Part shown: in pieces, positions 4,930 through 61,054 of the stretch
How positions within the stretch are numbered: position 1 is the stretch's first letter
Layout: every line of letters starts with the position of its first letter
Source: Cetorhinus maximus
Lineage: Eukaryota
Length of the DNA: 64,000 bases
NCBI RefSeq assembly: GCF_964194155.1
Contig: NC_135893.1
Span: forward strand, 13,454,001-13,518,000
Direction: 5' to 3'
Translations under genes and position numbers: made by a program
The notes under the pieces: model-generated
Told to the model about the DNA's origin: nothing
Seen by the model: the letters and a program-made list of their open reading frames with translations, nothing else
Database searches by the model: none

Positions 4930-5345
4930 ATTACTCAAGCGTGGCAAGGCTGTAGGGATTTCCCACAAGTGTGTCTGTGTCGCAGCATTGCCCATGAGTG
5001 TGTCCCTGTTGTAGGGGTTCCACAGACGTGTGTCAGTGTTGTAGGGATTTCCCAGTGAGTCAGTGTTTGTAGGGATTCCCCAGTAGTGTGTCAGTGTTGT
5101 AGGGATTTCCCAGGAGTGTGTCAGTGTGTGAAGCGGTTCATCAGGCTTATGTCAATCTCTGCAGGGGTTCTCTTGAAGTTTGCCAGTGTTGCGGGAGTAC
5201 CCAAGAATGTGTGGACCATTGCAGGCATTCTCTTCTGTATGTCAGTGTTTGTAGGTGGCCTTGGGAGTGTGGTATGTTTCAGGGGTTCTCTTGGAGTATG
5301 TAAGTGTTTTCAAGGGTTTTCTGGGGATGTGTCAATATTTGTAGT
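4930..5345 (+). repeat. ~30-bp degenerate minisatellite (gtgtcagtgttgtagggatttcccaggagt)
   Basis: More than ten visible tandem units. Confidence 0.85.
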
Positions 5346-10517: not shown

Positions 10518-11800
10518 GCATCTGTTCTGATGACGTTCCTCTGACATGTCCTCCTTCTTCTTTAACTGAGGTTTTCCACCCACGGTCGTTGACAGGGCCC
10601 TCAACCGTGTCCGGCCCATCTCCCGCGCATCTGCCCTCACGCCTTCTCCTCCCTCCCAGAAACATGATAGGGTCCCCCTTGTCCTCACTTATCACCCCAC
10701 CAGCCTCCGCATTCAAAGGATCATCCTCCGCCATTTCCGCCAACTCCAGCATGATGCCGCCACCAAACACATCTTCCCTTCACCCCCCCTGGCAGCATTC
10801 CGTAGGGATCGTTCCCTCCGGGACACCCTGGTCCACTCCTCCATCACCCCCTACTCCTCAACCCCCACCTATGGCACCTCCCCATGCCCACGCAGAAGAT
10901 GCAACACCTGCCCCTTCACTTCCTCTCTCCTCACCGTCCAAGGGCCCAAACACTCCTTTCAAGTGAAGCAGCATTTCACTTGCATTTCCCCTAACTTAGT
11001 CTACTGCATTCGTTGCTCCCAATGCGGTCTCCTCTACATTGGAGAGACCAAACGCAAACTGGGCGACCGCTTTGCAGAACACCTGCGGTCTGTCCGCAAG
11101 AAAGACCCAAACCTCCCTGTCACTTGCCATTTTAATATTCCACCCTGTTCTCTTGCCCACATGTCTGTCCTTGGCTTGCTGCATTGTTCCAGTGAAGCCC
11201 AACGCAAACTGGAGGAACAGCACCTCATCTTCCGACTAGGCACTTTACAGCCTTCTGGGCTGAATATTGAATTCAACAACTTTAGATCTTAAACTCCCTC
11301 CCCTCATCCCCAACCCGTTTCTTCCCCCTCCCTTTTGTTTTTTTCAATAATTTATATAGATTTTTCTTGTCCCACCTATTTCCATTATTTTTAAATCTAC
11401 AACTAATACCTTGTCAATCTTTCCACCCCACCCCCACTAGAGCTGTACCTTGAGTGTCCTGCCTTCCATTCTTAATTAGCACATTCTCTTAGATAATATC
11501 ACCACCTTCAACACCTCTTTGATCCTTTTGTCTGTGACATCTTTTGATTCTCTGCTCCTATCACTGCTTGCTTGTCCCTACAACCACCCCACCCTCAACT
11601 TCTCTCCCCCACCCCACCCCCCACCTTAAACCAGCTTATATTTCACCCCTCTCCTAACTACACTCAGTTCTGTTGAAGGGTCATTGGACTCGAAACGTCA
11701 ACTCTTTTCTTCTCCACCGATGCTGCCAGATCTGCTGAGTTTTTCCAGGTAATTCTGTTTTTGTTTTTGTTTTGGATTTCCAGCATCCGCAGTAGTTTTT
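10518..11800 (+). mobile_element. 5'-truncated Penelope-like element, family A (GIY-YIG end plus pLTR), inserted in a SINE
   Basis: 10-bp TSD tgcttcacta (10508-10517 and 11801-11810). ORF 10963-11292 LVYCIRCSQCGLLYIGETKRKLGDRFAEH is nearly identical to the end of ORF 46532-48058. The host SINE core gttgtaaaaacccaactg|cactaatgtccttcaggga rejoins across it. Confidence 0.93.
11666..11703 (+). ncRNA. Minimal type-I hammerhead ribozyme motif (variant core CUGUUGA) in a Penelope pLTR
   Basis: agtt-CTGTTGA-a-gggtc-attg-gactc-GAAA-cg-TC-aact: helix I agtt/aact, helix II gggtc/gactc, palindromic helix III acgt, GUC cleavage triplet. Confidence 0.7.
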
Positions 11801-11899
11801 TGCTTCACTAATGTCCTTCAGGGAAACCATCCTGCCGCCTTTATCTAGTCTGACCTACATGTGATTCCAGTCCCACACCATGGTTGGCTCTACGATGTC

Positions 11900-12345
11900 A
11901 GCCACGGTTCAACGGTAGCACCTTTGCCTAGATCATGAAGGTTGTTGGTTCAAGCTTCACTACAAAGTCTTGAGCACAACATCTTCAGCACAGTAATGAG
12001 GGAGTGCTGCACTGTTGGAGATGCTGTCTTTCAGATGGAATGTTAAACTGAGGGCATATCTGCCCACTCGGTTGGAAGTAAAAATCCCATGACAATATTC
12101 ACAAAACAGAAGTGTTCACCCCAGTGTTCTGGCCAATATTTATCCCTCAACCAACATCAGTAAAACATATTATCAAGTCATTATCTCACTGCTGATTGTG
12201 GAAGCTTGCTGTGCACAAATTGGCTGCCACAATTCCTATGGTACAATAGTTACTACACTTCAAAAGTACTTAATTGCCCCAAAAGCACTTTGAGATGCCC
12301 TAACGTTGTGAAAGACACTAAGTAAATGCAAATTCTTTCTTTCTC
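11900..12345 (+). mobile_element. tRNA-headed Deu-domain SINE (SacSINE1-like) with L2-type tail
   Basis: B-box ggttcaagc; Deu core gatggaatgttaaactgaggg..aaaatcccatgacaatatt..gttctggccaatatttatccctcaaccaac; tail taaatgcaaattctttctttc. Confidence 0.8.
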
Positions 12346-13599
12346 AATATCGCTCCCGAAGTGGCCCAGCATGTCATTCAAATGTCAGGGCAACTAGGGT
12401 TGGGTCATGCAGCTTGGCCAGAGTTGCCCAGATCTCAAGAATTTTTTTAATAGAATTATTTTTAAAACGCACTTTTCGAAATTATTGCCATTAAAAGTAG
12501 TTAAAGCAAAAGATTAGCAGTATCTCAACAGCTTTTAAAGGTGCATTGTCTTCAGTGTACAGGGTTGGAGTAGAGCAGGAATGTTGCTCGTCATTTCCTG
12601 ATGCACTACTGTCAGATGTAAGTGATTTACACAGTGATCCATTCTGTCACAAACTAATCAGCACATTGAATGTTTTGGCAAAAAAGGTTTGCCCAACTTG
12701 AATTGTCTTTCACTGACATGCTTAATTGATAAAACTTACCGGCCTGGCAGCTGAACTTGCCCAGTCTGTGTTTGTGTACTAGCAATATAACATGTTTGCA
12801 GTGCATCAACTTAAATAAATCTGCTGCAGTGGGTGAAATTGTGACTCTCAATGTCTTCAATTTTTAATGTAGAAGGGAGCCGAATGTTTTGCAAGTGGAT
12901 GAAGTTGACTCGGCTGAACAGAAGCTTCATCAAACAGGGTGCTGCAAAAAATATTCAGTGAGGTGTTTGCAATTTTTTCCTTCGTTTTGAGCTAAATCTC
13001 AAAATGCAATACAAACTGGCAGCCAATTTTAGTCTAACAAATATATACATATATGGTGTGCAATATAGAGAAAGGGTAATGACCTTATTTTGGGAAAGAG
13101 GAAATGGTGTTTCTGTAGTACTACTGACTGAAAGTTATCAGCACTCCCACTTATCATACCATTGTATGTGTTATGGACCAGATATAGCCAATCTCCTTTT
13201 TAGCTGTCAATGAGATTAACGTTTTAGTCATGAATAGGATAGTGATGAAAGCCAAATTTAAGAGCTGTCTCTTACTGCTGCATTCATTAAATTGACAGAC
13301 AGTAAAAAAGCATATGTCAGCTTCATTGCTTTTTTGTACATCAGATTTAGGGGGGAATAAAGAAGCTGCTCAGGAATTTCCTGAACAACCATCTCCTCAA
13401 TGAGCGCAGACTTCTGCTTTCACATACTCCACCAGAAAAATGACCTGTATAGTATGTGATGTGGCACATTAACCCTTGGAGGTATCTTTTGCACTAGGTC
13501 ACAAATCAGATGGACAGATTTTAGGGGCATTTGCAAGTCATGGTTGTTTTTTTTTATTTGCATGAGTGAAAGCAAGGCAGGAGCATTCTCTCAGTAGCT

Positions 13600-14106: not shown

Positions 14107-14758
14107 GGAGAGAATTTTCTCCCCTTGGGGGGGGGTTGTGTGCGGGTGGGCACGTACCTGATCTGTGCCCCCGATCGGATCCGCACTAACATTTTACGTG
14201 GGCGGGCCAATTGAGGCGCTCCCTGTGTTGACGGGAGGGGTTCCGTGAGTCGGGAGTGCGCTCTTTCGCGCATGAGTGCGAAAGACCGCAGAAATCTCCC
14301 TGAAGCACATCTGTGCCTCAGGGAGATAAGTTTTAAGTTTTTAAAATTTTAATTAAAAAAATAATTTAAGACGTGTCCCCTCATGTGACAGTGTCACATG
14401 AGCTGCGACATGTCAATTAACTTAAATGAGAAAATGTATTTAATTTATAAATCCTTCGTGAAACCTCATCCCATGGATGAGGTTCCATGAAAAATGCGAA
14501 GGCCACCTGGGCTCTGCCTGCCCGCCAACCTTAAGGTTGGACGGGCAGCTTTCTCAATAGCTTTAATTAGTTAATTAATGGCCTTAACAGGCCTTTGACA
14601 GTTCGGAGGGCGCAAAGCCAACTTGGCTGCACGCCCGCTGAACTGAAAAACTAAATGACGCGTGGTGATGTCGGGACGCACACCCAAGGTCACCTCGTGT
14701 CATTTTACGTCTTGGTGAGCGGGTTCTGCCCTCGCTCGCCGAGCCAAAAATTCTCCCC
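14107..14758. mobile_element. Harbinger-type MITE (~650 bp) within a CR1 remnant
   Basis: TIRs ggagagaatttt / aaaattctcccc; internal palindromes shared with the other copies; TSD not matched. Confidence 0.85.
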
Positions 14759-16474: not shown

Positions 16475-17009
16475 GGGCCAAATATTACGCTCGGCATGAG
16501 GTCGTGTGCCCATCGTTCCCGAGCGCACGATGACGTCGGGATAGCGTCCCAATGTCATCGCACAGTCTCACAATATTTCATTCGACGGGTGCATGGAGTT
16601 GGGATGAGGTTTCCTAAAGCAAATAAACGTCAAATAGAAATATTATTTTTGAATTAAAACATGTCCCAGCTCATGTGACAGAGTCACATGAGGGGACACG
16701 TTTTATGACAATTTTATTTCCTTTATTTATTTTTTTTAAACAGCGCTTTATCTCCCTGAGGCAGCTCCGTGTCTCAGGGAGATTGAAGCGCTCTTTTGCG
16801 TGCACATGCAAAGATAAAGCTAGGCCCGCCCACCTGCCCTCTTCACCCTGCCCGCACAGGCAGCGCTGAGTGCTGCCGCTCGCGTTCCACGCTGGGCGAG
16901 CCTTAATTGGCCCATCAGCATGAAATCGCAGTGCGGAGCTGATAGCGGGTGATGGGCAGTTTCCTATCTGGCCCCGCTGAGTACCCGTGCCAAGGGCAAA
17001 ATCCTGCCC
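16475..17009. mobile_element. Harbinger-type MITE (internally deleted)
   Basis: Ends gggccaaatatt / aaaatcctgccc, TSD CTT, central ctcatgtgacagagtcacatgag palindrome. Confidence 0.85.
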
Positions 17010-17129: not shown

Positions 17130-19950
17130 ATGGAATGCACATCATGTGAGAACTCCTACTCAAGTCGTGGCCAACCACATGTGCAAGAAGTGTTTATCAG
17201 TTGGAGGAGCTCAAGCACTGGGTTTTGGAGCTTGAGTAGCAGCTGGTGTCATTGCGGTGCATCCATAAGGCTGAGAGTTACATGGATAGCAAGTTTCTAG
17301 AGGTGGTCACCATGAAGCTTAAGAGTGATCAAGAAGAGAGGGAATGGATGACTGCCAGGCAGTCAAGGAAGACCCAGGCAGGTGGTGCAGGAGACCCATC
17401 AGCCAGAGCTGATTCTTGGGTAGGTGGGACCTATGCCAACCAGACAGGTTGCACCTCTGTAGAGCCATGACCAATACCCTGACAGGCTGGTTTGCTAATG
17501 CTGTTGGGAAGGGTTTAAGCTGACTTGGCAGAAGAGTGGGAAGCAGAATATAGCTTAAGAAAGGAGAAACAAGGTGCACAATGGATTGGGAGAGGCAGAT
17601 AGCACTAGAGTAAGAAATAGTAAGTTATAAGGTGGGATCAGACTAACAGGAAATGCAATGAAGTCTAAATTAGGTTTACAGTGCATATACGTAAATGCAT
17701 GAAGAATTGTAAATAAGGTATGCTAGCTGCATGTGCAGTTAGTCACATGGAAATATGATGTTGTGGCAATAACAAGAGACCTGGCTCAAAAAATGGCAGA
17801 ACTAGGTACTAAATATTCCTGGATACAAGTATTCAGGAAAGACGGAGAAAGAAAGGAAGGTGAAGAATCTAGTGGATTAAATGTCAGTGGGGGAGCATTT
17901 AGGAAACAGTGATCATAAGGTATAGGTTAGTTATGGAAAAGAACAAGCAGTAATCTAGAGTAAAAATATTTAATTGGAGGAGGGCCAATTTCAGTGGGGT
18001 GAGAAAGGATCTGTGCTAGATAAATTGGAATCAAAGATTGACGGGCAAAACAGTAGGATGTTCTATTCTGGAACGCCAGTTGGTGAAGGATAGTACTGGA
18101 GCCAATCTTTACTCATTTATTTACAGAGTGAAGCACATATCTTCTCACTCAACCACACACCGTTTCAGTAAGTGTCTCCTTATATGTGCTCAAGTGAAAC
18201 CTCAATTAATGCCCTTCAACTGGATATAATTAAACACAATTGATAAAAAATTAACAGGCGGAGCAATGGGCTGCCTTTGAGTGACAGGAAACAGAGACTG
18301 GTGGTGAAAAGTTGTTTTTCAGACTGCAGAAAAACATGTAGTCAGGTTCCCAGGGGTTGATACTAGGATCATTGTTTTTCATGATATATATTAATGACCT
18401 AGTCTTAGCTGTAAAGGGCACAATTTCAAAATTTGAAGATGACACAAAACTCGGAAGTATTGTGAACTTGGAGGAGGGTAATGATAGATCTCAAGAGAAC
18501 AGAGACAAGATAGAATAGGTGAACATGCAGCAGATTAACTTTAATGCAGAGAGTGTGAAGTGATACATTTTGGTGAGAAGAGGCAGAGGCAATATAAACC
18601 AAAGGGTACAATTCTAAAGAGGGTGTAAAAACAGAGAGTCCTGGGGCAAAATTTTTACCTCAGTGGGTGGGCGCCTGACCCGCTGGAGCGTAAAATGACG
18701 CACGTTGACCTCGGGAAGCGTTCTGACGTCAACATGCAGTCATGCGATATTTTGGTTGGTGGGCACATGCGGGAAGTGGCAGTGCACCCGCCAACAATTA
18801 AAAGGCCTGTTAAGGCCATTAAAGTTGTAATTAACTTACATTATTTGCTGCCCATCCAACCTTACAGTTGGTAGGCAGGCAAAAAGGCCAAGCGGCCTTT
18901 GTACTTTTTAGGAAACCGTTTCCAAAAGCAAATAAAAATAAAATAAAAATGTTTAAATTTAATTAATAACATGTCCCTGCTCATGTGACAGAGTCACATG
19001 AGGAGACATGTTTTATAACATTTTATGTGCCTTTATTTATTTTTCTGAAAACTCATCATCTCTCTGAGGGAGCTCTGTGTCTCAAGGAGATTCTCAAACA
19101 CGCACTCACGCACCTGCGTGAAGTTTGCACTCGCACTCTCCCACTCGTCTGCACAGGCAGCATTGAGCATTGCCACTCGCATTTCATGCCAGGCAGGCCT
19201 TAATTGACCCACCAGCGTGAAATTGCGGTGCAGCCTTGATTGAGGGTGGCAGTTGGCCTCCCGGCCGCCCCTGCCAAGCCCGCCCGACAAGGGCTAAATT
19301 CTATCCCTGGAGTGCATATGGACAAATTTTTGAAGGTAACAAGACACAGGATCCTAGGCTTTACAAATAGAAACATAGAGTACAAAAGCAAGGAAGTTAT
19401 GATGAACCTTCATAAATCAGTGGTTTGGCCTCAACTGGAGTATTGTGTCCAATGTCCTTAAGGAGGATGTGAAGGCTTTAGAGAGGGTGCAGAAAAGATT
19501 TATGAGTATGATTCCAGGGATGAGGGACTTAAATTACATGGATAAATTAGAGAAGTTGGGGTTGTTCTCCTTAGAAATGAGAAGGGTGAAAGGAGTTTTG
19601 ATGGAGGTGTTCAATATTATTTGGGGTTTAGACAGAGCGGATAGAGAAAAACTGTTCGTACTGGTGAAAGGGTTGAGAACCAGAGGACACTGTTTCAAGG
19701 TGAATGCTAAAAGAGTTAACATGCGACATGAGGAAAAGCCTTTTAACGTACTCAGAGTCTCGTAGAGGCAGATTCAATCGTGGCTTTCAAAAAGGAATTG
19801 AATAAACACTGAAGAGGAAAAATTGCAAGGCTACAGGAAAAGGGCAGGGAATGAGATGAGCTGAATTGCTCTTTCAGAGAGCTGGCCTGGATACAACAGG
19901 CTGAATGGCCTCCTTCTGTGCTGCAACCATTCCATGATTCTATAGGATAG
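17130..19950 (+). mobile_element. Highly decayed near-full-length CR1 (ORF1 remnant, APE endonuclease, RT, 3' UTR)
   Basis: ORF1-like tgcaagaagtgt..gagcttgagtagcagctg; endonuclease remnant gtaaatgcatgaagaatt..tatgatgttgtggcaataaca; RT remnant aaatttgaagatgacacaaaactc; ORF 19445-19765 ALERVQKRF. Confidence 0.8.
18644..19306. mobile_element. Harbinger-type MITE nested in CR1 ORF2
   Basis: TIRs gggcaaaatttt / taaattctatcc and TSD CTG (18641-43 and 19307-09); removing it restores the CR1 QRxLGV codons. Confidence 0.9.
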
Positions 19951-27394: not shown

Positions 27395-28660
27395 GAGAAA
27401 GCACTTGCATTTTTACAGCATCTTTCACGACTTGAGGACATCTGAAAGAATGCTATATAGCCAACGAAGTACTTTTTGAAATGTAATTACTGTTGTAATA
27501 TATGAAATGTGGCAACCAATATATGCAGAGCAAGATCCTACAAACAGCAATGAGATAATAACCAATTAAACTGTTTCAATTATGTTGTTTGAGGGATAAA
27601 TATTAGCCCAAACATAAGGGGCAAGATATTGAGGTCGGCGAGTGGGGGCCGGGGCCCACTCGCTGACGCGGGATGACATCAGGCAGAACTCCCGACGTCA
27701 CCCCGCGTCATTTCAATTTTCAGGTCAGTGAGGGCGCAGCCAAATCAGCTGTGCGCCCGCCGACCTGTCAACGGCCAATTGAGGCCATTTAAAAACTAAT
27801 TCAACTAGGTAATGGACCTTAAGCTCCTAACAGTGGCCCAGTGGTATTGTAATTGGGTTAATAATTCAGAGACCCAGGGTAATGTTCTTCGAATCCCGCT
27901 ATGGTACATAATAGTTTGAATTCAATGTGAAAAGTAGAATAGTTAATGGACCTGCCCGTCCAACCTTAAGGTTGGCGGGCAGGCCGGGAGCCCTCGTGGG
28001 CTTCAGAAAATGCATGAAACCTCATCCATGGGCGGGATGAGGTTTCATGAAGGTTTTTAAAAATTAATAAAAGTTTGGATAAAAGTGATGGACATGTCCC
28101 AACTCATGTGACAGTGTCACATGAGGGGGCATGTCAGGGAAATTTTATTTTTGTGCATTGACCATTTTTGAATTTGGCGCTGATCTCCTTGAGGCAGCAC
28201 TTAGCCTCAGGGAGACGCATGCGCGAAAGAACACACTCCCAGCTTAGGGAATCCCCCGCTGGCAGCACAGGGAGCACATAGCACTTCCTGGCGAACATCG
28301 CACTGGGCGGGCCTTAATTGGCCTGCCCACGCAAAATGGCGGCACGTCCCCAATTGGGGGCGCCAATCGGAGGCGCGCCTGCATGCGCCCGCTCCTGCAC
28401 TTCCCCCCCGATGGGGGGAAAATTCTTCCCAAGGGAGAACTCTACTGCTCTTGTTTGAATTGTTCCATGGGATCTTTTACATGCACATGTGAGAGCAGAT
28501 GAAGCCTGTTATTGTCTCATTAGAAAGATGGCATCACAAACAGTACACCACTCCCTCTGCAATGGAATGTCAACCTGGACTATGTGCTCAAGCCTCTGGA
28601 GTGGGACTTGAACTAATAATAATCTGATTCAGAGTCGAGAGTGCTACCTACTTACTGACA
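27395..28660 (-). mobile_element. Deu-domain SINE split by a MITE
   Basis: gagggataaatattagcccaaacataag|ggagaactctactgctctt..ccatgggatctttta rejoins across the MITE; the head is at ~28600-28650. Confidence 0.8.
27619..28430. mobile_element. Harbinger-type MITE carrying a nested SINE head (27820-27943)
   Basis: TIRs gggcaagatatt / aaaattcttccc and TSD AAG; the internal insert is flanked by the 10-bp direct repeat taatggacct. Confidence 0.9.
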
Positions 28661-35379: not shown

Positions 35380-37983
35380 ATAGTCGTTTGGTAATACAGA
35401 ACTTGAGTATTGCTGAAAAAAAGAGACATTTTGTCAAAGCTCTTTGCCTTGCACTCATCAGGACAATCACAAGAATACCAATGTCAGGAGAAGCAACAAC
35501 TTTATACTGTATGAGAAGAGAGTGCTGATTGTTGGCAAGTGGATTCTGATTGGTAGAGATGTTGCCATGGAGAATGCACCAGTTAATGATGACAGCTAAC
35601 TGCCAAGCATTGTGTGAAATTTAAACCAGGCAGCTTGACTCTGATTGGTCAAGACATTACCCTGAGGAATGAACCAGTGAATGGCTATTACTTATTTTGT
35701 TTAGCTGAAACAGGTACAATGTGTGTTCATGTTCTTTCTGCCTGCAAAGAACAGGGCCCTGTGTATTAATATATGTAGATTCCAGTACACACAAATGCAT
35801 CACACCGCGAGCATGACTGACAATCTTAAACCGGTTGTCAGTATAATTTTTAGCACTTTGAGGATTATTTAGCAAATGTTGTCCAATTGCAGCATCACAC
35901 CTAACGTTGGTCATTGTGTTTAGAGTTTTGCAAGCATGGCCTAGTTGAGTACGGTCTGTACCTTGCCCATTGCGAACAACGGAAGGGGCATGTTGTTTGA
36001 TACAATCTGCCAGTCTTTTGGACGTACGGCTTACATACCTAGCATCAAACTGGCAATGAAATTCATATAGCACATTACTCATCTGGCGGCCTTAGACCCA
36101 TTCATGAGTTTACACAATATACAATGCGAAATGATCAGAACAGGGTAGCCATGATCCTGTGGGATAGTTAGGAGTAAAAGAGTTCGAACTCAGCAAATAC
36201 CTCTTCCCGCCACAAACCAGCATCCACTGAAGATGCGGAATCCTTGAAAGCACGCCTAGCTGAACTAGCGCAAGCATATTGCGGGATTCCAAACAACCTG
36301 TCTGATTCTCACATGCATTCCAAATGAGTTACAGCATTTTGAGGTCTTAAGGCCAACCCAGATGTACATATCAGTAAACCTGACAAAGGGACAGGAATAG
36401 TTACCCTTAACAAGTGTGACTGTATCAACAAAATGCATGCCATTCTTAATGACGGGTCCAAATTCGGATTCACTGGGCCTGCCACTCAATATGACCGGAC
36501 AGCCTTGCTCAAAAGTAAGCTGAAGAAACGCTTGCTGGACTTGTGTAAGAGCGATGAGCTGCTGCATGATATATATGACATGGTTCGTCCTCATGGCTCG
36601 CTGCATCCGCGTATGTATGCGCTGCCCAAGACACGCAAAAGTGATGTCCCTTTATGCCTTATCTTATCTATGACCGGTTCTGCATAGCACGAATTGGCCA
36701 AATGGTTAGGCAAGTTATTACAAAGAGTTTTGAACAAGTTTTCCAGATACATGGCGAAGGATTTCTTCACATTTGCGAAAACCATACAGAACTTGCAGAT
36801 CGATAGCAATGCTATGCCCATGTGCTCATTTGACATTGCTAGCCTATTCACCAATGTTCCACTTCATGGAAGCCATAGATATTTCCACTGCAGCACTATA
36901 TCATGGCGATTTAGACTCGCCACCATTTCATGAATCAGTATTCATTGAGCTTATGAACTCAGCAACTCATGCAGTTGAGTTAAACTTCAACAACACCATG
37001 TATGCCCCAATAGATAATATTGTCATGGGATCCCCTTTAGGCCCAGTTCTCACAAACATCTTTGTTGGTTCCATGAGAAACATGTCTTCAATGGAATGAC
37101 ACCTAACCTCCTACCACTTGCATATTTCTGATATGTGGATGATACGTTTGCTACATATAAGTCCACAGTAGCAGGTACTAATTTTCTTGCATGTCTTAAT
37201 GGGTTCCATCTTGTGCTCAAATTCACCTTTGAAATGGAGCAGTCAAATGAACTCCCATTCCTTGACGTACTAGTTGAGAAATCTGCCAAGGGATTCTCTA
37301 CCACGGTCTACCACAAGCCTACCTTCACTGGTCAATAAACACGCTGGGATTCTTATAGTTCCACACACTATAAGATTAACCTTATCCGCAACTTCGTAAA
37401 CAGGGCCCGAGCCATTTGCTCACCATGCAAGCTTGATGCTGAAATAGGGCGCATCAATGACATCCTTCTTGATCAAATCATTTCCATCTGTATATCACGC
37501 AAACTCATGAACAGGCCTAAGACTGTCACTTTCAGTCCTGAAAAATGCCCAGTATACGTCAGATTACCCTGGAAGGGCAAGATATCTCAAAAATTTGAGC
37601 AACAGGTAAAGCTAGCTGTTTCATGTTGCTACTATCCAGTAGGAACATGAGTGGTATTCACCACTAACAGGATGCCGCCATCAAACCAAAGATACATTCT
37701 GCCTAACTCACAAAAAAGTAATGTGGTATATGAATTTCAGATGCTAGGTATGTAGGCCATACATCCCAAAGACTGGCGGATTGTATCAAACAATATGCCC
37801 TTCTGCTTTTCACAACGGGCAAGGTACAGACCAGACTCAACCAGCCCGTGTTTGCAAAACTCAAAATACAGTGTCCAACATTAGATGTGATTCTGCAATT
37901 TAACATTGGTATTCTTGTGATTGTCCTAATGAGTGCAAGATGAAAAGCTTTAACAAAATGTCTCTTTTTCTCAGCAATACTAT
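35380..37983. mobile_element. Penelope-like element, family B, head-to-head inverted insertion, decayed
   Basis: Minus arm 35380-36082 (GIY-YIG remnant VLYEFHCQFDARYVSRT, pLTR, tail). Plus arm ~36085-37983 with RT remnants (MYALPKTRK, SFDIASLFTNVP, MGSPLGP, YVDD, LPFLDV). TSD ctatatcc (35372-79 and 37984-91). Confidence 0.88.
37921..37956 (+). ncRNA. Degenerate minimal hammerhead ribozyme motif, Penelope family B (inverted sibling at 35431-35466)
   Basis: ttgtc-CTaATGA-gtgcaagat-GAAA-agctt-t-aacaa. Consensus inferred from four copies: ttgtc CTGATGA gtgcaaga(c/t) GAAA agctt (c) gacaa. Confidence 0.55.
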
Positions 37984-41560: not shown

Positions 41561-42528
41561 CAGTTGCTTGGCTGTAGAGAACTCGAGTATTGCTGAAAAG
41601 AGAGACATGTTGCTGAAGCTTTTCATCTTGCCCTCATCAGGACAGACGCAAGAATGCCAAATTTCAAACGATCACAACAATTTATAGTACGGGAGAAAAG
41701 GATGCTGATTGGTTGGCAAGTTGACTCTGATTGGCTGAGGCATTGTTATGGAGAAAGCAATGGGAAACTATAGGCTCGCAAGCTCCCAGGTAATTCAGAA
41801 AAGACACAAGGCTTGAGCATATTCCTTTTGTTTGCAGAGAACAAATCCCTGCATATGAATGTATGTCACTTCTAGTAAGCAGAAATGAACCACGTTATGA
41901 GTTCAACTGATTATCTTGAATTGGTTGTTAGTGTAGGTATTAGCACATTCATAGTTCTTAAGCAAGTGCTGCCCAATCGCGGAATCACATCTAACAGTAG
42001 ACGTTTTGTTTTGGGCTTTGCAAGCACGGGCTGATTGAGTACGGTCCATACCCCGCCAAACAACTATACAAACCATACTCAACCAACCTGCAATCGCAAA
42101 ACCCAAGACAAAATGTTTACCATTAGATGTGATTCTGCGATAGGGTAGAACTTACTGAACAATCCTGAATGTGCTAAAAGCTACACTAACAGCCAATTTA
42201 AGATAATGAGTCAACTCATTATGTAACTCATTTACACTTGCTAGAAGCAACATACATTCATATGTGTGGACTCATTCTCTGCAAACTAAAGGAATATGTT
42301 CAAGCCTTGCATTTTTTTTGAATTAGCAGGGAGCTTGGGGAGCCTATAATTCCCAATTGCTTTCTCCATGGCAATGCTTTTGCCAATCAGAGTTGACTTG
42401 CCAGTCAATCAGCACCCTTTTCTCCTGTACTATAAATTGTTGTGATCGTTTGAAATTTGACATTCTTGCATTTATCCTGATGAGTATAAGATGAAAAGCT
42501 TTGGCAACATGTTTCTCTTTTCAGCAAC
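41561..42528. mobile_element. Penelope family B-related foldback element (two inverted 3' ends, no RT)
   Basis: 41589-~42045 is the diverged reverse complement of ~42077-42528; both arms contain the GIY-YIG C-terminal remnant and a hammerhead motif; TSD aattaaa (41554-60 and 42529-35). Confidence 0.88.
41610..41646 (-). ncRNA. Minimal hammerhead ribozyme motif (sibling at 42471-42507, +)
   Basis: Minus strand reads tctgtc-CTGATGA-gggcaagat-GAAA-agct-TC-agcaa; the core is intact but the helices are eroded. Confidence 0.6.
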
Positions 42529-43884
42529 AATTAAATCTGTGTCCCAGAAAAGAGGGGGGCAATAAACTAAGTACATTTGATGGGAAAAATCATCCTGTTG
42601 CTACTTACAGACAACTGTAAATTAATATTTCAAATCTAGCTCTATTTACAAATTGCAAATCAGCTCCATGCTATAATTTTTAATCCAAAAAGTACTTTTA
42701 TTTCCAAAAGCTGTAATTACAATAGATCACAAACACGTGGTAAAGTTTTTTCATGTGTTTAAAGTTCCCTGACCCTATGTAAGTGAATTTGTACTGTTAT
42801 GCAAATTTGCACTGTCACTTACAGCAGGATTATCTGTGATTATGTCAGTTTACATCTGTAAATAGTTTGGCTGTAATGACATTTTTATAGTTTTTTAAAG
42901 TTACCTTTTACTGAGTCTGAAAATTATCAGAAGAAAAATATGAATTTTCATTACCTAAATGACCTGAAATGCAAATAAGATTAATCTCTTTGTTTATTTA
43001 AATGACATAGATGGTTGAATGAAGTTTCATATTCAGCATTAGCACAAGAAATGATAGTGTTATCTTATTATTCAAAAGTGTGACTGCACAGGAAGTTTTA
43101 AAAACCCCAATATACAGGACAATAAATGACCATATTCAGATTAGTGGGCAGTATACTGGACACAGGAGAAAATAAGGTTACACAGCATTCTTTTCCTTTT
43201 TCCAAGTCAGAAAATTTAAATGTCAGTGCCTCAACAAGAGAAAAAAATCAGCATCTCCCTTAACCCCCGGCACCCATCCACCCCAAGAAGTGAGAAAATC
43301 TATTCTATTGAACTGTTTACAAACAGGCACATCTCTGAGGAAACAGGCAGCAGAGAATTACAGTACCTCAGATCCAGGAGTAATTAGAAGGTATGTTGTG
43401 CTAATCGATCAATGGTGTCTTGGTTTCTCAGCTTCTTTTGAGCTGGCGGCCATAAGGCAAGAACTTAATTCAAGAAGAAAAGACAACTGTGCTCCTGCAC
43501 TTTTACCCTCTGTAAATAGAAATGTACAGAGGAAAATGTATGGATTGAATTCAAGCAGAGGATTTGTTCCATGTTTTAAAGGTAGTGTTAGTGGCCTATT
43601 GCAATTGCATAGTGGTCTATTGCAATTGAATGTCGACCAAATCAGACAAAGCCAACTTTTCATACACAAGCTAAAATAATATTAGGTTAGTTCTTTCTTC
43701 TGTCACTTTGCAAAGATTTGCAAGCCTGTAGGAATCTAAAAAAATCCAACCTTCCTTTAGTTATCATTCTGTTTTAAATTGTGTGTAAAACACTTTTAAT
43801 AGCAGATCAGTTCTTTACATTTAACTATCAGTTAGAGAAATCCTATTTATTCTTGATCACAGTGTTTACTTGTCACTGATGCAG

Positions 43885-44585
43885 GTGATCAGCCTTGTAT
43901 AAGTGATGGAGGAGATCAGCACTGCACAGTCACTGATGAAGGAGGTCAGGATTATATGGTCACTGTTGGGAGAGATCCGCATTGTAAGATCACTGTTGGA
44001 GAGATCAACATTGTGTGATCACTGTTGGAAGAGATCAGCATTTTATAGTCACTTTTGGAGGAGACCAACATTGTATGATCACTGTTTGAGGAGATCAGCA
44101 TTGTATTGTCAAAACTGAGAAGAGGAGGAGATCAGTGTTGCATGGACACTTTTGGAGGAGGTCAGCATTTTATTGTAACTGTTGGAAGAGATCAGCATTG
44201 TATGGTCACTGTTGGAGGAGATCAGTATTGTATGGTCATTGTTGGAAGAGATCCACATTGTATTATCATCGTTGGAGGAGATCAACATCGTATGATCACT
44301 GTTGGAAGAGATTAGCATTTTATAGTCACTGTTGGAGGAGACCAACATTGTATGATCACTCTGAGGAGATCAGCATTGTATTGTCAAAAATGAGAAGATC
44401 AACATTGTATGATCACTGTTGGAAGACATCAGTATTGTATGATCACTGTTAAGATCAGTATTGTATGGTCCCTGTTGAGATATTATATGGTCACTGTTGA
44501 GGAGATCAACATCGTATGGTCAGTGTTACATTAGATTAGCATTGTATGCTCACTGTTAGAGAAGACTAGCATTATTTGATCAGTG
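43885..44585. repeat. 30-bp minisatellite (gatcagcattgtatggtcactgttggagga)n
   Basis: About 23 contiguous degenerate units with no unique spacers. Confidence 0.92.
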
Positions 44586-46457
44586 TCTAAGAAAGAATAT
44601 CCAAGTAAATTTCCTGACTGATTTTCTTCTGTTATTGTCTTTCCTGAAGTTTTTGACTGCCTCAACGAGATACTGTTCCACTAATACTGATCATCATCTA
44701 CTAACACTCAAGTGCCCAGTAATTGCATGGGAACTTTGACCATGGGTCTTAGCAGGCTATTCAACTATAGCCAGGATCAGAATCAAGCCAGATTCCGTCT
44801 TCATTTGTCATGAAACAGTGCACTTTGCAGTATGGATTCTACTGTTTTCCTGGCCAAAATTCTCTAATTGGACATGGATCAGGGATAGAATCTATGACAT
44901 TGCTATCCTGTATATCTTAGGTGAATATACATGAATAAACTCACTGAGCTTTTGGAGGAGTTGATAATATATTTTAATTGGTATGTCTCCATTACGATTA
45001 GATTGTCATCATTGTTAGTTGTAATCACACTTCTGTCCATTGATCTCGGAATCTGTACCCTTCTATACATAGTCCTGCATCTTGGAGGTTCAGTAATGTT
45101 GCACATTGATAGCTCAGCATATTGCATATGGACTGCAAGAATGTAAATTGGTAACCACAATTACCCACACTTGAGAAACTCAGTTTCATTGCATCTCAAT
45201 GGGGAGGTATCAGTCAAAAGCCGTGTGATTCTCTGATAGATTAGAAGTCCTGGGTTACTCCTTTACACCACCTAAGAGCTGCTATCGGAGCAGAATTGCC
45301 AATCAACCAGGGAGGGAGTATGTTGTAGGGCACCACAACGAAGAGGGAACAAAACATCTTTCAGTATGAATCATGAACAAATACCAGGTAGGTTTATTTG
45401 TATTTGTCATTATTCAGCTTCTGACTTTTTCGTTGATTTCCCTATAACCATTTGAATTAATGAAACCATTAACTTACATCCAACTTTGTAATTCACCCAT
45501 ATAAGAATGTCCATGAGTGAGTGTTTTTTGAGTTGTCAAAACAGACAGATGGGTTTGTAAGGATGCTGTGTGCTACATGATATGATTATTAACTAATTTT
45601 AAAGCAGAATGCTTAATATATTGTAGCTTTAAAACTGTCAACTCATGTGTTGTATTGAATAAATTCTAAAATTATTTATCCAGTTTAAAAACATTAAAAA
45701 CCATTTTAAAAACATGCCCTTTAACACTCAATGTGCAATGATGAGCTTTGAACTCATCCAAAATTAACCATTCATTTAATGAAATGTTTACTTAAATTTT
45801 AACTTGTTGAAATAGGTCCTGAAAAGGAATTGAATACCACCCTGCATAAATCAGAGGCTTGTCACCAAAGGAGGGAAAGAGCAGAAATAAAGTAGAGAAA
45901 GAGGCACTGGAAATGGAGAGATAAATGTGTCAAGACCACTGATTTATAGTTTCACTGGAAAATAAGCTGAATCATGTGAAGATCTAGCAAAGATCCTGAC
46001 TCTAATTAAAAATTACATCTGGCATTTTAGATAGCCATAAAACAGTAGCCTTAATGGTGTTTGCATTATATACAAAAACAGAATTACCTGGAAAAACTCA
46101 GCAGGTCTGGCAGCATCGGCGGAGAAGAAATCAGTTAACGTTTCGAGCCTTCATGGCCCTTCGGCAGAACTGAAGCATAGTTAGAAGAAGGGAGAAATAT
46201 AAATTGGTTTAAGGTGGGTGGGGGGGCGGGGGGCGGGGAGACACACATTGAGGGTGTGGTGATTGTGGAGATGAGCAGATAATCAAAAGATGTCACAGAC
46301 AAAAGGGTCAAAGAGGTGTCGAAGGTGGTGACATTTGTCTGAGAAAAGTGCTAATTAAGAATGGAAGACAGGATATTCAAAGTACAGCTCTAGTGGGGGT
46401 GGGGTGGAAAGACTAACAAGGTTTTAGTTTAGATTTAAAAATAATGGAAATAGGTAG

Positions 46458-48058
46458 CGACCCAACCTCGGACGGCCCGCTTCTACCTCCTACCCAAAAT
46501 CCACAAACAGAACTGTCCTGGCAGACCGATCGTGTCAGCCTGTTCCTGCCCCACGGAACTCATTTCTCGTTATCTTGACTCCCTTCTCTCTCCCCTTGTC
46601 CAGTCCCTTCCCACCTACATCCGTGATTCCTCTGACACCTTACGTCACATCAACAATTTCCAGTTCCCTGGCCCCAACCGCTTCCTCTTCACCATGGATG
46701 TCCAATCTCTCTACACCTCCATCCCCCACCAGGATGGTCTGAGGGCCCTTAGCTTCTTCCTTGGACAGAGGCCCCAAAAATCCCCATCCACCACTACTCT
46801 CCTCCGTCTGGCTGAACTTGTTCTCACACTGAACAATTTCTCCTTTAACTCCTCTCACTTCCTCCAAATAAAAGGTGTGGCTATGGGTACCCGCATGGGC
46901 CCCAGCTTTGCCTGTCTCTTTATGGGGTATGTGGAACATTCCTTGTTCCAGTCCTACTCCGGCCCCCTCCCACAACTCTTTCTCCGGTACATCGATGATT
47001 ACTTCGGTGCTGCTTCATGCTCTCGTCGGGACCTGGAAAAATTTATTAATTTTGCTTCCAATCTCCACCCCTCCATCATCTTCACATGGTCCATCTCTGA
47101 CACTTCTCTTCCCTTCCTTGACCTCTCTGTCTCAATTTCTGATGATAGACTGTCCACCAATATCCATTACAAGCCTACCGACTCCCACAGCTACCTCGAC
47201 TACAGCTCCTCACACCCCGCTTCTTGTAAAGACTCCATCCCATTCTCTCAGTTCCTTCGCCTCCGTCGCATCTGTTCTGATGACGCTACCTTCAAAAACA
47301 GCTCCTCTGACATGTCCTCCTTCTTCCTTAACCGAGGTTTTCCATCCACGGTCGTTGACAGGGCCCTCAACCGTGTCCGGCCCATATCCCGCGCATCCTC
47401 CCTCACGCCTTCTCCTCCTTCCCAGAAACATGATAGGGTCCCCCTTGTCCTCACTTATCACCCCACCAGCCTCCGCATTCAAAGGATCATCCTCCGCCAT
47501 TTCCGCCAACTCCAGCATGATGCCACCACCAAACACATCTTCCCTTCACCCCCCCTGACGGCATTCCGTAGGGATCGTTCCCTCCGGGACACCCTGGTTC
47601 ACTCCTCCATCACCCCCTACTCCTCAACCCCCACTTATGGCACCTCCCCATGCCCACGCAGAAGATGCAACACCTGCCCCTTCACTTCCTCTCTCCTCAC
47701 CGTCCAAGGGCCCAAACACTCCTTTCAAGTGAAGCAGCATTTCACTTGCATTTCCCCTAACTTAGTCTACTGTATTCGTTGCTCCCAATGCGGTCTCCTC
47801 TACATTGGAGAGACCAAACGCAAACTGGGCGACCGTTTTGCGGAACACCTGCGGTCTGTCCGCAAGAAAGACCCAAACCTCCCTGTCGCTTGCCATTTTA
47901 ACACTCCACCCTGTTCTCTTGCCCACATGTCTGTCCTTGGCTTGCTGCATTGTTCCAGTGAAGCCCAACGCAAACTGGAGGAACAGCACCTCATCTTCCG
48001 ACTAGGCACTTTACAGCCTTCTGGGCTGAATATTGAATTCAACAACTTTAGATCTTAA
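46458..48058 (+). CDS. Penelope-like polyprotein: reverse transcriptase plus GIY-YIG endonuclease (N-terminally truncated, no internal stops)
   Basis: RFYLLPKIHK..GRPIVS, TMDVQSLYTSIP, GVAMGTRMGP, RYIDD, LPFLDL, YKPTDSHSYLDY.S.HP, C..RCNTC, LVYCIRC..LYIGET. The frame is open from the inversion junction, upstream of the GTG start in the ORF track. Confidence 0.93.
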
Positions 48059-48427
48059 ACTCCCCCTCCCCCCATCCCCACCCCGTTTCTTCCCCCCCCC
48101 CCCCACCTTTTTTTTTCAATAATTTATATAGATTCTTCTTTCCCCACCTATTTCCATTATTTTTAAATCTAAACTAAAACCTTGTTAGTCTTTCCACCCC
48201 ACCCCCACTAGAGCTGTACTTTGAATATCCTGTCTTCCATTCTTAATTAGCACTTTTCTCAGACAAATGTCACCACCTTCGACACCTCTTTGACCCTTTT
48301 GTCTGTGACATCTTTTGATTACCTGCTCATCTCCACAATCACCACACCCTCAATGTGTGTCTCCCCCCCCCCCACCCCCCCACCCACCTTAAACCAATTT
48401 ATATTTCTCCCTTCTTCTAACTATGCT

Positions 48428-48470
48428 TCAGTTCTGCCGAAGGGCCATGAAGGCTCGAAACGTTAACTGA
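48428..48470 (+). ncRNA. Minimal type-I hammerhead ribozyme motif (variant core CUGCCGA); identical inverted copy at 46131-46173
   Basis: tcagtt-CTGCCGA-a-gggcc-atgaa-ggctc-GAAA-cg-TT-aactga: 6-bp helix I, 5-bp helix II, palindromic helix III. Confidence 0.7.
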
Positions 48471-49289
48471 TTTCTTCTCCGCCGATGCTGCCAGACCTGC
48501 TGAGTTTTTCCAGGTAATTCTGTTTTTGTTTTGGATTTCCAGCATCCGCAGTAGCTTTTAGCTTTTTGTTTTTATCTTTGCATTATATACGATGTCTAAT
48601 AATATCACAAAAGCATTGCAAAGTGATTCATATCTTTAAATTACTTTTGGAGTGCAGTGACTGTTGTTATGTAACCAAATTCTAAACCTAAGACTGTCAG
48701 GTTGTTTCTCTGATTGTTATTTTGCTGTAGCTGGAGATTAAATTTTCCCCAATCTAGTCAGCATGTGAAATTTTCCAATTCTACACTCAATAAGTATACT
48801 ATTTTGACACGCGGAAAAGGCCTCATAATTCCAGCTCAGAATTCTAAAAGCATAATGTTTCACTCAGGGTGTTTGCTGCCAAGATATTGCATTCAGAGTT
48901 TGTTTAACAAAATGGCAATTATAGAAGTTTGAAACCAGTTTTAAAGCTAGCTGAGAATTTAACACCAGCATGCAGCAGCCAAATATTTTATCTGACCATC
49001 CTAATTTGAATGGAAACTAGGGCTTAAGCACCCTTTAAAAACATTCAACGTTGTCAAACCCCAGTCGCTATAAATTCTTAAAACAAAAGATATGTACAAA
49101 AAAATCCTTTGTATTCAGATGGCACAAGTATTGTATCATTTTTGTACCACTTGGATCATGTTGTATGGACATTGTATTGTAAGTTTCACTGCCAATTCAT
49201 ATTTTTGGTGCACTCAGTACATCATCCTGAAACAGCAAGATTTTGAAATAATTAGGAAATGCTTATATCAATTTTTTTTCAAGTGAGAC

Positions 49290-51956: not shown

Positions 51957-52669
51957 GGGCAGAATTTTTTGTTGGCGTACAGGCGCGCGTCCGACATGCT
52001 CGAGTGTGAAATAGCGCGTGATGACGTCATGCAAGCATCCCAACGTCATCACGCACTCGCTTGATATTTCAGTCGGCAGGCGCACATGAGGGTTGGCAGG
52101 GTGGCCACTGACAGTTAAGAGGCCTATTAAGGCCATTAACGTATTAATCAAACATGATTTTTCGCTGGCCCGTCCAACATTGGCAGGCAGGTAAATCGGC
52201 CAGGCGGCCTTTGCCTTTTTGGGGAAACCTCATCCAAGGGCGGGATGAGGTTTCTAATATTAATTTTAAAAGAAATGAAAATGTTTGCACAGAATTTTCA
52301 TCTGGTATATGTTCCTGGTGACTGATTCTGATGCATGGGCATTTTTTCGCAGTTTTTCCAATCTTTATTTTTGGCATTTAAATTCTTCAGCTCCCTGAGG
52401 CAGCGCTCTCCTTCAGGGAGCTTTGTGTGAGCGCTCCCCCGTGCCCACGCTGACTTCAGCACTCACCCTCCTCCTGCCCCCGCACTAACTTCAGCGCTTG
52501 CCCTCCTCCTGCCCCCATCCCGACAGCACTGAGCCTTTCAGTGCGCCTTTCACGCTGGCTGGCTGTTAATTGGCCAGCCAGCGTGAAATTGCAGTCGGCT
52601 TGGGGTCCGTTCCCTGGCCGCTCCAGGGCCCGCTAATCATGGGCGCCCACCAAACTAAAAATCCTGCCC
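51957..52669. mobile_element. Harbinger-type MITE
   Basis: TIRs gggcagaatttt / aaaatcctgccc; TSD CTA; internal ~40-bp tandem duplication at 52453-52520. Confidence 0.9.
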
Positions 52670-57705: not shown

Positions 57706-57804
57706 CACAAATACAGAAAGTGCTGGAAAAACTCAGTAGGTCTAGCAGCATCCGTGGAGCGAGAGAGAGAGACAGACATTTCGAGTCCGTATGACCCTTT
57801 TTCA
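57706..57804 (-). mobile_element. Solo hammerhead-plus-tail insertion related to Penelope family A (99 bp)
   Basis: Minus strand reads (c)tgaaaaagggtcatacggactcgaaatgtc..gatgctgctagacctactgagtttttccagcactttctgt; TSD gagatgag (57698-705 and 57805-12). Confidence 0.75.
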
Positions 57805-58129
57805 GAGATGAGTAGCTGTTACTGGGCTGGTGTGAAAGCAATGTCGGAGCGAGTTAGAAAGTCCATGCCTGGAAGGAAGCTGTACCTGAGTGGCAAGGAA
57901 AATAGGGACAGAGATAGCAGGTCAGTGACATGTGGCCTGAGGGTCACCTGCTGCTGAACCTTTTCGCAGCACTGAAATGATTTGACCTCAGCATAACACC
58001 CACATATATATTGCAAAATCCTGCCTTGACGCCTTGAACTTGCCCTTGTCACACCTTGCGTATATGCACTGCAATGCTCTGCAGTGCTTCGTTTAACATT
58101 TATATAGCACATACTTTTGTCTTGTACTT

Positions 58130-60654: not shown

Positions 60655-60860
60655 AGTCCCAAGAGTGTCACTATTTGTCAGGAATTTCCAGTATGCGCCA
60701 GTACTTACAGGGAATTTCCAGTGCATGCCAGTATTTGCAAGGAATTCCCAGTGAGTGCCAGTATTTACAAGGAATTCCCAGTAAGTGCCAGTATTTGCAG
60801 GGAATTCTCAGTGTGTGCTAGTATTTGCAGGGAATTCCAAGTGTCTGCCAGTATTTGAAG
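60655..60860. repeat. 30-bp minisatellite (gtgccagtatttgcagggaattcccagtgt)n
   Basis: About seven tandem units at exact 30-nt spacing. Confidence 0.88.
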
Positions 60861-61054
60861 GAGGTACAAGAGGAGTATGTGCATATCTATGGGGGCTTTC
60901 CCACAGAGAAAGATTTGAAAACTGTTGAAGTTATCCTTTAATTCCCAAATTACTGGCTAGCTTCTTCCTTGGGGTGTTCACTATGTTAAAGGCACTATAT
61001 AAATACATCATGCTGTTGAATGGTTTCTTTTCCAATACAAACACTGTTCATCAA

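Follow-up and report, generated by a model that had tools for sequence, protein, structure and literature searches.

The hammerhead motif at positions 48428–48470 of the window (the whole 64,000-nt stretch of Cetorhinus maximus DNA that was analysed) is a minimal type-I hammerhead in the pseudo-LTR (pLTR) of a Penelope-like element (PLE) encoding reverse transcriptase (RT) and a GIY-YIG domain. The young copy that carries it spans 46074–48576, is flanked by 14-bp target-site duplications, and consists of an inverted pLTR arm, a 5′-truncated RT + GIY-YIG ORF, a 3′ pLTR and a tail. The first-pass annotation had likened the motif to the minimal type-I hammerheads with a palindromic helix III of Penelope pLTRs, and both layout and location agree with that description. 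The relevant features of the window are the following:

10520–11806, plus strand (ends approximate): older 5′-truncated copy of the same lineage, with GIY-YIG by Pfam
11666–11703, plus strand: U6 motif CTGTTGA with a 4-bp helix I, helix II GGGTC/GACTC (U-A pair) and H17=C
46060–46073, plus strand: left target-site duplication, 14 bp, the same 14 nt as 48577–48590
46074–46460, minus strand: inverted 5′-truncated pLTR arm with short tail (389-nt inverted repeat, 99%)
46131–46173, minus strand: second C6 hammerhead motif, in the inverted arm, letter for letter the same as 48428–48470
46454–48058, plus strand: 5′-truncated PLE ORF with RT, CX4CX2C linker and GIY-YIG (Pfam)
48059–48427, plus strand: 3′ UTR/pseudo-LTR body, with a further copy ahead of the ORF in both tandem elements, L087 and L265
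48400–48406, plus strand: TATA-like box, a putative promoter element 30 nt upstream of 48430
48428–48433, plus strand: helix I 5′ strand TCAGTT, read from the sequence
48434–48440, plus strand: core strand C3 U4 G5 C6 C7 G8 A9 (CTGCCGA; C3 at 48434), with C6 at 48437 in place of A6
48442–48456, plus strand: helix II, 5 bp (GGGCC/GGCTC) with G10.1-C11.1 and a 5-nt loop; C-G pair at 48445/48453
48457–48464, plus strand: G12 A13 A14 A15.1, palindromic minimal helix III, U16.1 and H17=U (48464); GAAACGT strand
48465–48470, plus strand: helix I 3′ strand AACTGA, pairing with 48428–48433
48471–48576, plus strand: pyrimidine linker and conserved tail, within which copies end; likely RT start sites
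48577–48590, plus strand: right target-site duplication, matching 46060–46073
57752–57807, minus strand: short remnant of a copy, decayed and of the oldest (A6 A7) class, with mutated G8; motif at 57776–57805

The host element displays the traits of PLEs with an endonuclease (EN+), namely a single ORF with RT and, at its C terminus, a GIY-YIG domain, partial tandem pLTRs, an inverted 5′-truncated copy and an optional tail. The window ORF matches RVT_1 (E 3e-7) and GIY-YIG (E 2.5e-4, below the gathering score) in Pfam and is 99.2% identical to the full-length element L087, in which two pLTRs flank an uninterrupted ORF of 917 aa, with an inverted arm in addition and C6 in all three motifs. A second tandem element of that layout, L265, also has an unbroken 917-aa ORF, is 99.5% identical and carries C6, the motif again being found in both pLTRs and the inverted arm. 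The 917-aa protein scores just under the gathering thresholds for RVT_1 (E 2e-6) and GIY-YIG (E 4.5e-4), each of which is passed in another copy. Its CX4CX2C linker lies at residue 783 of the L087 protein, between RT and EN, and a CX2-5CxxC linker at this place is described as a trait of the Neptune clade that also occurs in Nematis (PMC8557442). The ATG of the ORF is located ~150 nt below the cut site. The older copy at 10520–11806 retains 97.6% identity in its coding part and 91.5% in its UTR, and 122,792 tail anchors were counted across the 4.0 Gb of genome searched. A retrozyme reading was ruled out, as the motif resides in an autonomous element.

Several other observations concern the surroundings of the motif. 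Many insertions in the genome listings consist of two element tips back to back on opposite strands, 30–150 nt apart, containing the motif and tail only. In L088 and L271, long ORFs (910 and 793 aa) start within an inverted arm or copy, on its reverse strand, and are probably by-products of the inverted layout. The window also contains 30-nt tandem minisatellites (197–274, 4950–5205, 43881–44612 and 60663–60872), five copies of a dispersed repeat family with internal palindromes (D12, D14, D15, D18; 14290–14413, 16659–16932, 18969–19229, 28092–28343 and 52385–52595), and long MITE-like inverted-repeat elements at 35406–37981 and 41590–42527, the latter enclosing a weak Rfam match to MIR5998 far below the gathering score.

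The cores CUGCCGA in the young motif and CUGUUGA at 11666–11703 are both present as the first-pass annotation described them, and its statement that the variant is identical in the two arms of the young element holds over the motif, all 5 mismatches among the 389 nt of the inverted arms lying upstream of it. Helix I is paired in both motifs, as had been claimed, with 6 bp in the young motif vs only 4 bp in the older one. The earlier inventory had missed the third, decayed A6-class copy at 57776–57805 on the minus strand, which begins ~2 nt before C3. An extra A separates A9 from helix II in the young motif, and the predicted cut site, with the geometry given in PMC4209133, falls between 48464 and 48465. 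The extra base after A9, the G10.1-C11.1 pair and the palindromic 15.2–16.2 are all found; the A6 of canonical CUGANGA is lacking in the C6 and U6 motifs and is retained only in older subfamilies. An Rfam scan of the window returned no hammerhead family up to E=5, and by folding energy alone the motifs are no more stable than expected by chance (z -1.1 and -0.1). The motif is nevertheless not a chance occurrence, since it recurs at a single location within a repeat family, and tens of thousands of genomic sequences match its pattern exactly, vs 0–6 for reversed patterns.

A6 is replaced in most pattern matches of this family. With one fixed-geometry pattern, the genome yielded 32,312 matches with A, 39,577 with U, 22,202 with C and 1,481 with G at this position, so that 63,260 of 95,572 (66%) are non-A6; the share of A6 is a minimum estimate, given that the pattern demands a loop of 5 nt and captures too few of the old, decayed copies. 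When A9 was changed in the same pattern as a control, 1,714 non-A matches (1.8%) were obtained, and reversed-pattern controls for the position-6 count gave 0. A sample of 100 young copies was picked by a downstream anchor; 88 cover the core, and after one with a deletion was dropped, all 87 in register carry C6. The remaining core (C3-G8, U4, G5, A9, G12 A13 A14 and A15.1-U16.1) is kept in 84–87 of these 87 copies per position, and H17 is U in 83 and C in 4. The question whether most copies are canonical CUGANGA, raised with the original description, is thus answered in the negative, and the claim that the variant was in the transposing RNA and did not arise by post-insertion decay is borne out by the genome-wide counts, the uniform young sample and the C6 of the intact tandem elements. 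Loss of A6 is common to the runs of other organisms: in runs labelled as organisms B, C and D, U6 accounts for 73%, 92% and 94% of contig depth, depth here being taken at position 6 of a C6 reference, with A6 contigs mostly clipped, and not equating to copy number. C7 was also seen in the runs of organisms C and D. In a further run, X12, one 154-nt C6U7 contig mapped to L134:1025-1109 reaches a depth of 6,269, far above the others; an RNA nature of this run is a guess, and its contigs show no ends.

The replacement followed an order in which A6 is oldest, U6 next and C6 youngest. A tree of 70 long copies with positions 6–7 masked forms a ladder from A6U7 through U6U7 and mixed U6/C6U7 to C6C7, along which the mean distance to the subfamily majority drops from 4.3–4.4% to 1.5%; a few rows of this tree are repeats of one locus or paired arms, five of which were dropped for the later subfamily counts. 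The first 100 A9-mutant matches listed, counted by hand, comprise 77 A6, 20 U6, 2 G6 and 1 C6, and the implied decay (~3.9% for A6, 0.9% for U6 and 0.1% for C6) gives the same age order. G at position 6 may also have been amplified briefly, since a hand count of the first 100 G6 matches listed gives 68 with G6U7, about 3x a rough decay estimate. The canonical core is complete (A6, H17=C) in one side branch, a single observation, whose age equals that of the first U6 family and for which no young member turned up in the sample. Matches with the youngest helix II context comprise an estimated 12,000–13,000 or so with C6 vs only 51 with another letter (33 U, 7 G and 11 A, 5 of the latter being A6 with young-type loops). 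An expansion of A6 revertants was not seen, as these 5 young-loop A6 matches compare with 7 G6 among the 51. Two proposed causes of the substitutions were judged weak. Later families have upstream AUGs elsewhere, which speaks against A6 having been lost to eliminate the AUG in CUGAUGA; mispairing of U6 as the driver of U6 to C6 appears in the short motif but reaches a probability of only 0.01–0.12 in a longer context.

The rest of the core remained constant while neighbouring segments changed. Along five non-A6 subfamilies, 101 changes occurred in 329 UTR sites, 3 in 5 sites of loop II, 7 in 13 sites of the linker and 3 in the 2 sites N7 and H17, and the 12 other core positions show 0 subfamily-level changes vs ~3.7 expected at the UTR rate (P(0)=0.025), a marginal test with 3–26 copies per subfamily. 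One apparent G12 subfamily change was attributed to CpG decay (11 G>A vs 8 C>T among 100 listed), and the same counts, together with 16.2C in 3 of 100, led to rejection of a dead G12A or 16.2C subfamily that a small sample had hinted at; in G12 decay, one arm of a pair is often intact. The positions that did change are those that hammerheads allow, namely N7, loop II, H17 (U/C only) and pair-keeping helix changes. With 4 changes in 49 sites, the tail is roughly as constant as the core, so catalysis need not be what kept the core unchanged.

The helices were likewise altered without loss of pairing. The helix II pair moved from U-A through U-G to C-G, these states being found in 14, 5 and 67 of 87 young copies with no C-A mismatch, and three of the U-G copies share a diagnostic GTGAA loop. 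In helix I, two pairs were gained in the youngest families. Overall, 90% of cells are paired vs 18–43% in slid controls, in type I order with 6+5 bp in young and 4+5 bp in older motifs. Only one of 13 pairs changes on both sides, and the covariation score of 0.131 vs 0.118 for shuffled alignments was equalled or exceeded in 19 of 500 shuffles. The helix II swap is a single inherited event through a U-G intermediate, without statistical significance; of the compensatory change claimed in the first description, the swap and its U-G intermediate subfamily are real, and the support from covariation amounts to this one event. Folded from the putative start, the hammerhead is not the predicted minimum-energy structure and helix I has a probability of 0.15 or less, and in the short motif U6U7 is predicted to be able to mispair with A14-G16.2 as a plain hairpin. 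When motif pairs were cofolded, the active dimer was never the lowest-energy state in any class, A6 included, which makes this calculation uninformative.

The ends of genomic copies bear on how the RNA is made and copied. In 94 of 100 long copies drawn from every class, a set that includes some arms or repeat rows of one locus, the TATA-like box precedes the A of helix I by 27–30 nt. The 5′ strand of helix I (48428–48433) fits an initiator consensus, with a putative RNA start near 48430. Among 100 young copies, 11 have 5′ ends at -7..0 (the 8 nt ending at C3) vs 15 in the 122 nt upstream (P=1.6e-7), another 11 end inside the motif, and no copy starts at the cut site (upper 95% limit, 3%). Another set of 100 copies, anchored by the tail and of every age, has 19 5′ ends at -6..0, with A6 families among them, and 3 located 29–33 nt below C3, one of these an alignment artefact; in this sample the A6 families are likewise without copies starting at the cut site, so the cut-site test does not separate A6 from C6, and cut RNAs might simply fail to integrate. 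Since short copies start at the 5′ edge of the motif and 0 of 100 at the cut site, inserted copies were likely made from uncut RNA. On this reading, cutting is dispensable for the template, in A6 families too, and the copy starts do not show that A6 loss altered the cutting rate. A 3′ splice site at the AG of helix I as the source of the 5′-end peak is disfavoured, the upstream flanks of short copies being mutually unrelated, and a cap-derived extra G at short-copy starts is ambiguous, as one subfamily has G there.

At the other end, the 3′ ends of young copies cluster ~65–70 and 110–115 nt past the cut site. The hammerhead fold had been suggested to persist as a structure recognized by RT; this role belongs more plausibly to the downstream tail, as copies end at two preferred points, as in the PAc element (PMC11167929). 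The tail segment 48484–48545 has complementary ends and a predicted long hairpin (z -0.5), which makes it a candidate RT-binding structure. In old-class copies (L022:1084, L050 and others), a pyrimidine tract, CAG and then ATG lie just below the motif, a linker that looks like a 3′ splice site followed by a reading frame that stays open across the tail; in young copies CAG has become CCG and a stop has been gained.

The explanation put forward here, tentatively and with somewhat less than an even chance of being correct, is that the replacement of A6 by U and then by C in successive source elements left a strongly slowed ribozyme that would cut rarely, as a dimer or with the assistance of the protein of the element. 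Its observed basis is the lineage-wide substitution, the order of that substitution, the unchanged rest of the core and the intact C6 ORFs. Loss of A6 likely slows hammerhead cutting strongly. If the RNA starts at the 5′ edge of the motif, as the copy ends and TATA-like box suggest, cutting would take off its first 35 nt and the cap; reverse transcription would begin in the tail and run to the 5′ end of uncut RNA. Cleavage by a hammerhead is reported to be able to drive cap-independent translation (PMC13725137). Because new copies would be made from uncut RNA, slow cutting should cost little and may help, and the continued spread of the element after the loss of A6 suggests that it has no need of fast cutting to copy itself. 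The remaining core, palindrome and helices may have been retained because occasional cleavage still matters, either in processing tandem transcripts or in switching the RNA off.

Nearly as likely is that cleavage was lost with A6 and that a hammerhead-shaped 5′ leader was kept for protein binding, packaging or translation control. A6C is known to slow cleavage without abolishing it (PMC3088659, PMC7151607): activity in Mg2+ falls by orders of magnitude and Mn2+ activity is spared (PMC7151607; PMC3088659), the rate in another hammerhead dropping from 0.3 to 3.6e-6 per min at 0.3 mM Mg2+ (PMC7151607). In a pairwise scan, no rescue in this motif was recorded except by the C3-G8 swap (PMC9901934), and PLE minimal motifs with a canonical core are already slow, even as dimers (PMC4209133). 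From these three points, C6 plus U17 may be effectively dead. Besides the size of the A6C defect in Mg2+, loss of cleavage is favoured by the amplification of U, C and probably G at position 6, the failure of revertants to spread, the absence of cut-site starts in young copies, the predicted hairpin of U6U7 in the short motif, and the ability of hammerhead-less PLE clades to proliferate well (PMC8557442). Against it, C3-G8, G5, G12, a cleavable H17 and a CpG-containing dimer palindrome have been kept over ~0.3 UTR changes per site, and no G12A subfamily arose. Selection to disarm a cap-proximal ribozyme is a rather unlikely variant of these ideas, in which loss of A6 would have kept the RNA from shedding its first 35 nt together with the cap, U/G/C6 sources would have outcompeted their canonical sister, and the motif would survive as a protein- or Mn2+-gated switch; if this were true, the genome would preserve a dated record, in fossil copies, of how a ribozyme was tuned down within a selfish element.

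It is improbable that the motif is a relic hitchhiking neutrally, with letters that persist through overlap with the core promoter and the little time spent in a single source lineage. Such a reading draws on the overlap of the motif with an initiator-like site 29 nt below the TATA-like box, on covariation without significance and on a core test that reaches only P=0.025. A DNA promoter gives no account of a helix II that moved via a wobble intermediate to a stronger pair, or of a helix I two pairs longer in the youngest families, and loop and linker changed by 0.5–0.6 per site beside the unchanged core. Private post-insertion mutations or assembly error have virtually no chance of explaining the variant: individual copies offer nothing beyond ordinary CpG decay in their favour, while 63,260 non-A6 matches, C6 throughout the young copies and U6 or C6 in the runs labelled as three other organisms oppose them.

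The family constitutes a natural experiment: with intact recent elements and a dated A6, U6 and C6 series in an otherwise matched context, the relation of cleavage rate to success is directly measurable. A further consequence is that about two thirds of this genome's motifs escape any descriptor search that insists on CUGANGA; hammerheads with a changed position 6 may therefore be present in some of the PLEs said to have none.

A literature search returned no report of a position-6 variant lineage in any PLE; outside that search lies the work of Lunse et al. 2017 (RNA Biol 14:1499), which reportedly covers a large number of variants linked to PLEs and may already include changes at position 6. 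Both PLE hammerheads and a single natural A6C have been described before; a PLE lineage with replaced A6 is new as far as searched. Proposed roles for PLE hammerheads include tandem transcript processing, a protein-assisted late step and mere parasitism (PMC4209133, PMC11167929, PMC8557442). Like the minimal hammerheads (min-HHR) of metazoan PLEs (Cervera and De la Pena 2014, PMC4209133), the present motif has a type I layout with a short helix I, an additional base separating A9 from G10.1, a G10.1-C11.1 pair and a palindromic 15.2–16.2, lies in the pLTR of an RT + GIY-YIG element and occurs in very high copy number. It differs from them at position 6, where U or C stands in two thirds of matches and A is replaced in all sampled young copies; in that survey, whose descriptor required A6, all 56 representatives in Fig. 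S3 have A6 and the core variant reported is U3-A8 (PMC4209133).

The C6 hammerhead of phage Bcep176 (Perreault 2011, PMC3088659; Naghdi 2020, PMC7151607) is likewise a natural A6C; it comes from one phage, and its slow cleavage shows a preference for Mn2+. In contrast, the substitution described here is fixed in tens of thousands of animal retroelement copies, affects a dimer-type minimal motif and was preceded by a U6 stage. PAc (Poseidon of Anolis; Frangieh 2024, PMC11167929) offers a parallel for the copying step: its hammerhead requires the PAc protein for cleavage and can be dispensed with for insertion in vitro, it lies just upstream of two RT start sites that account for two tail lengths, much as the 3′ ends of the present element cluster at two points, and uncut RNA serves as its insertion template, as would be the case here. 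The PAc ORF starts inside the motif, and its C3 and G8 are needed for cleavage (PMC11167929), whereas the present element places its ATG ~150 nt below the cut site, bears a Neptune-type CX4CX2C linker and carries a non-A position 6.
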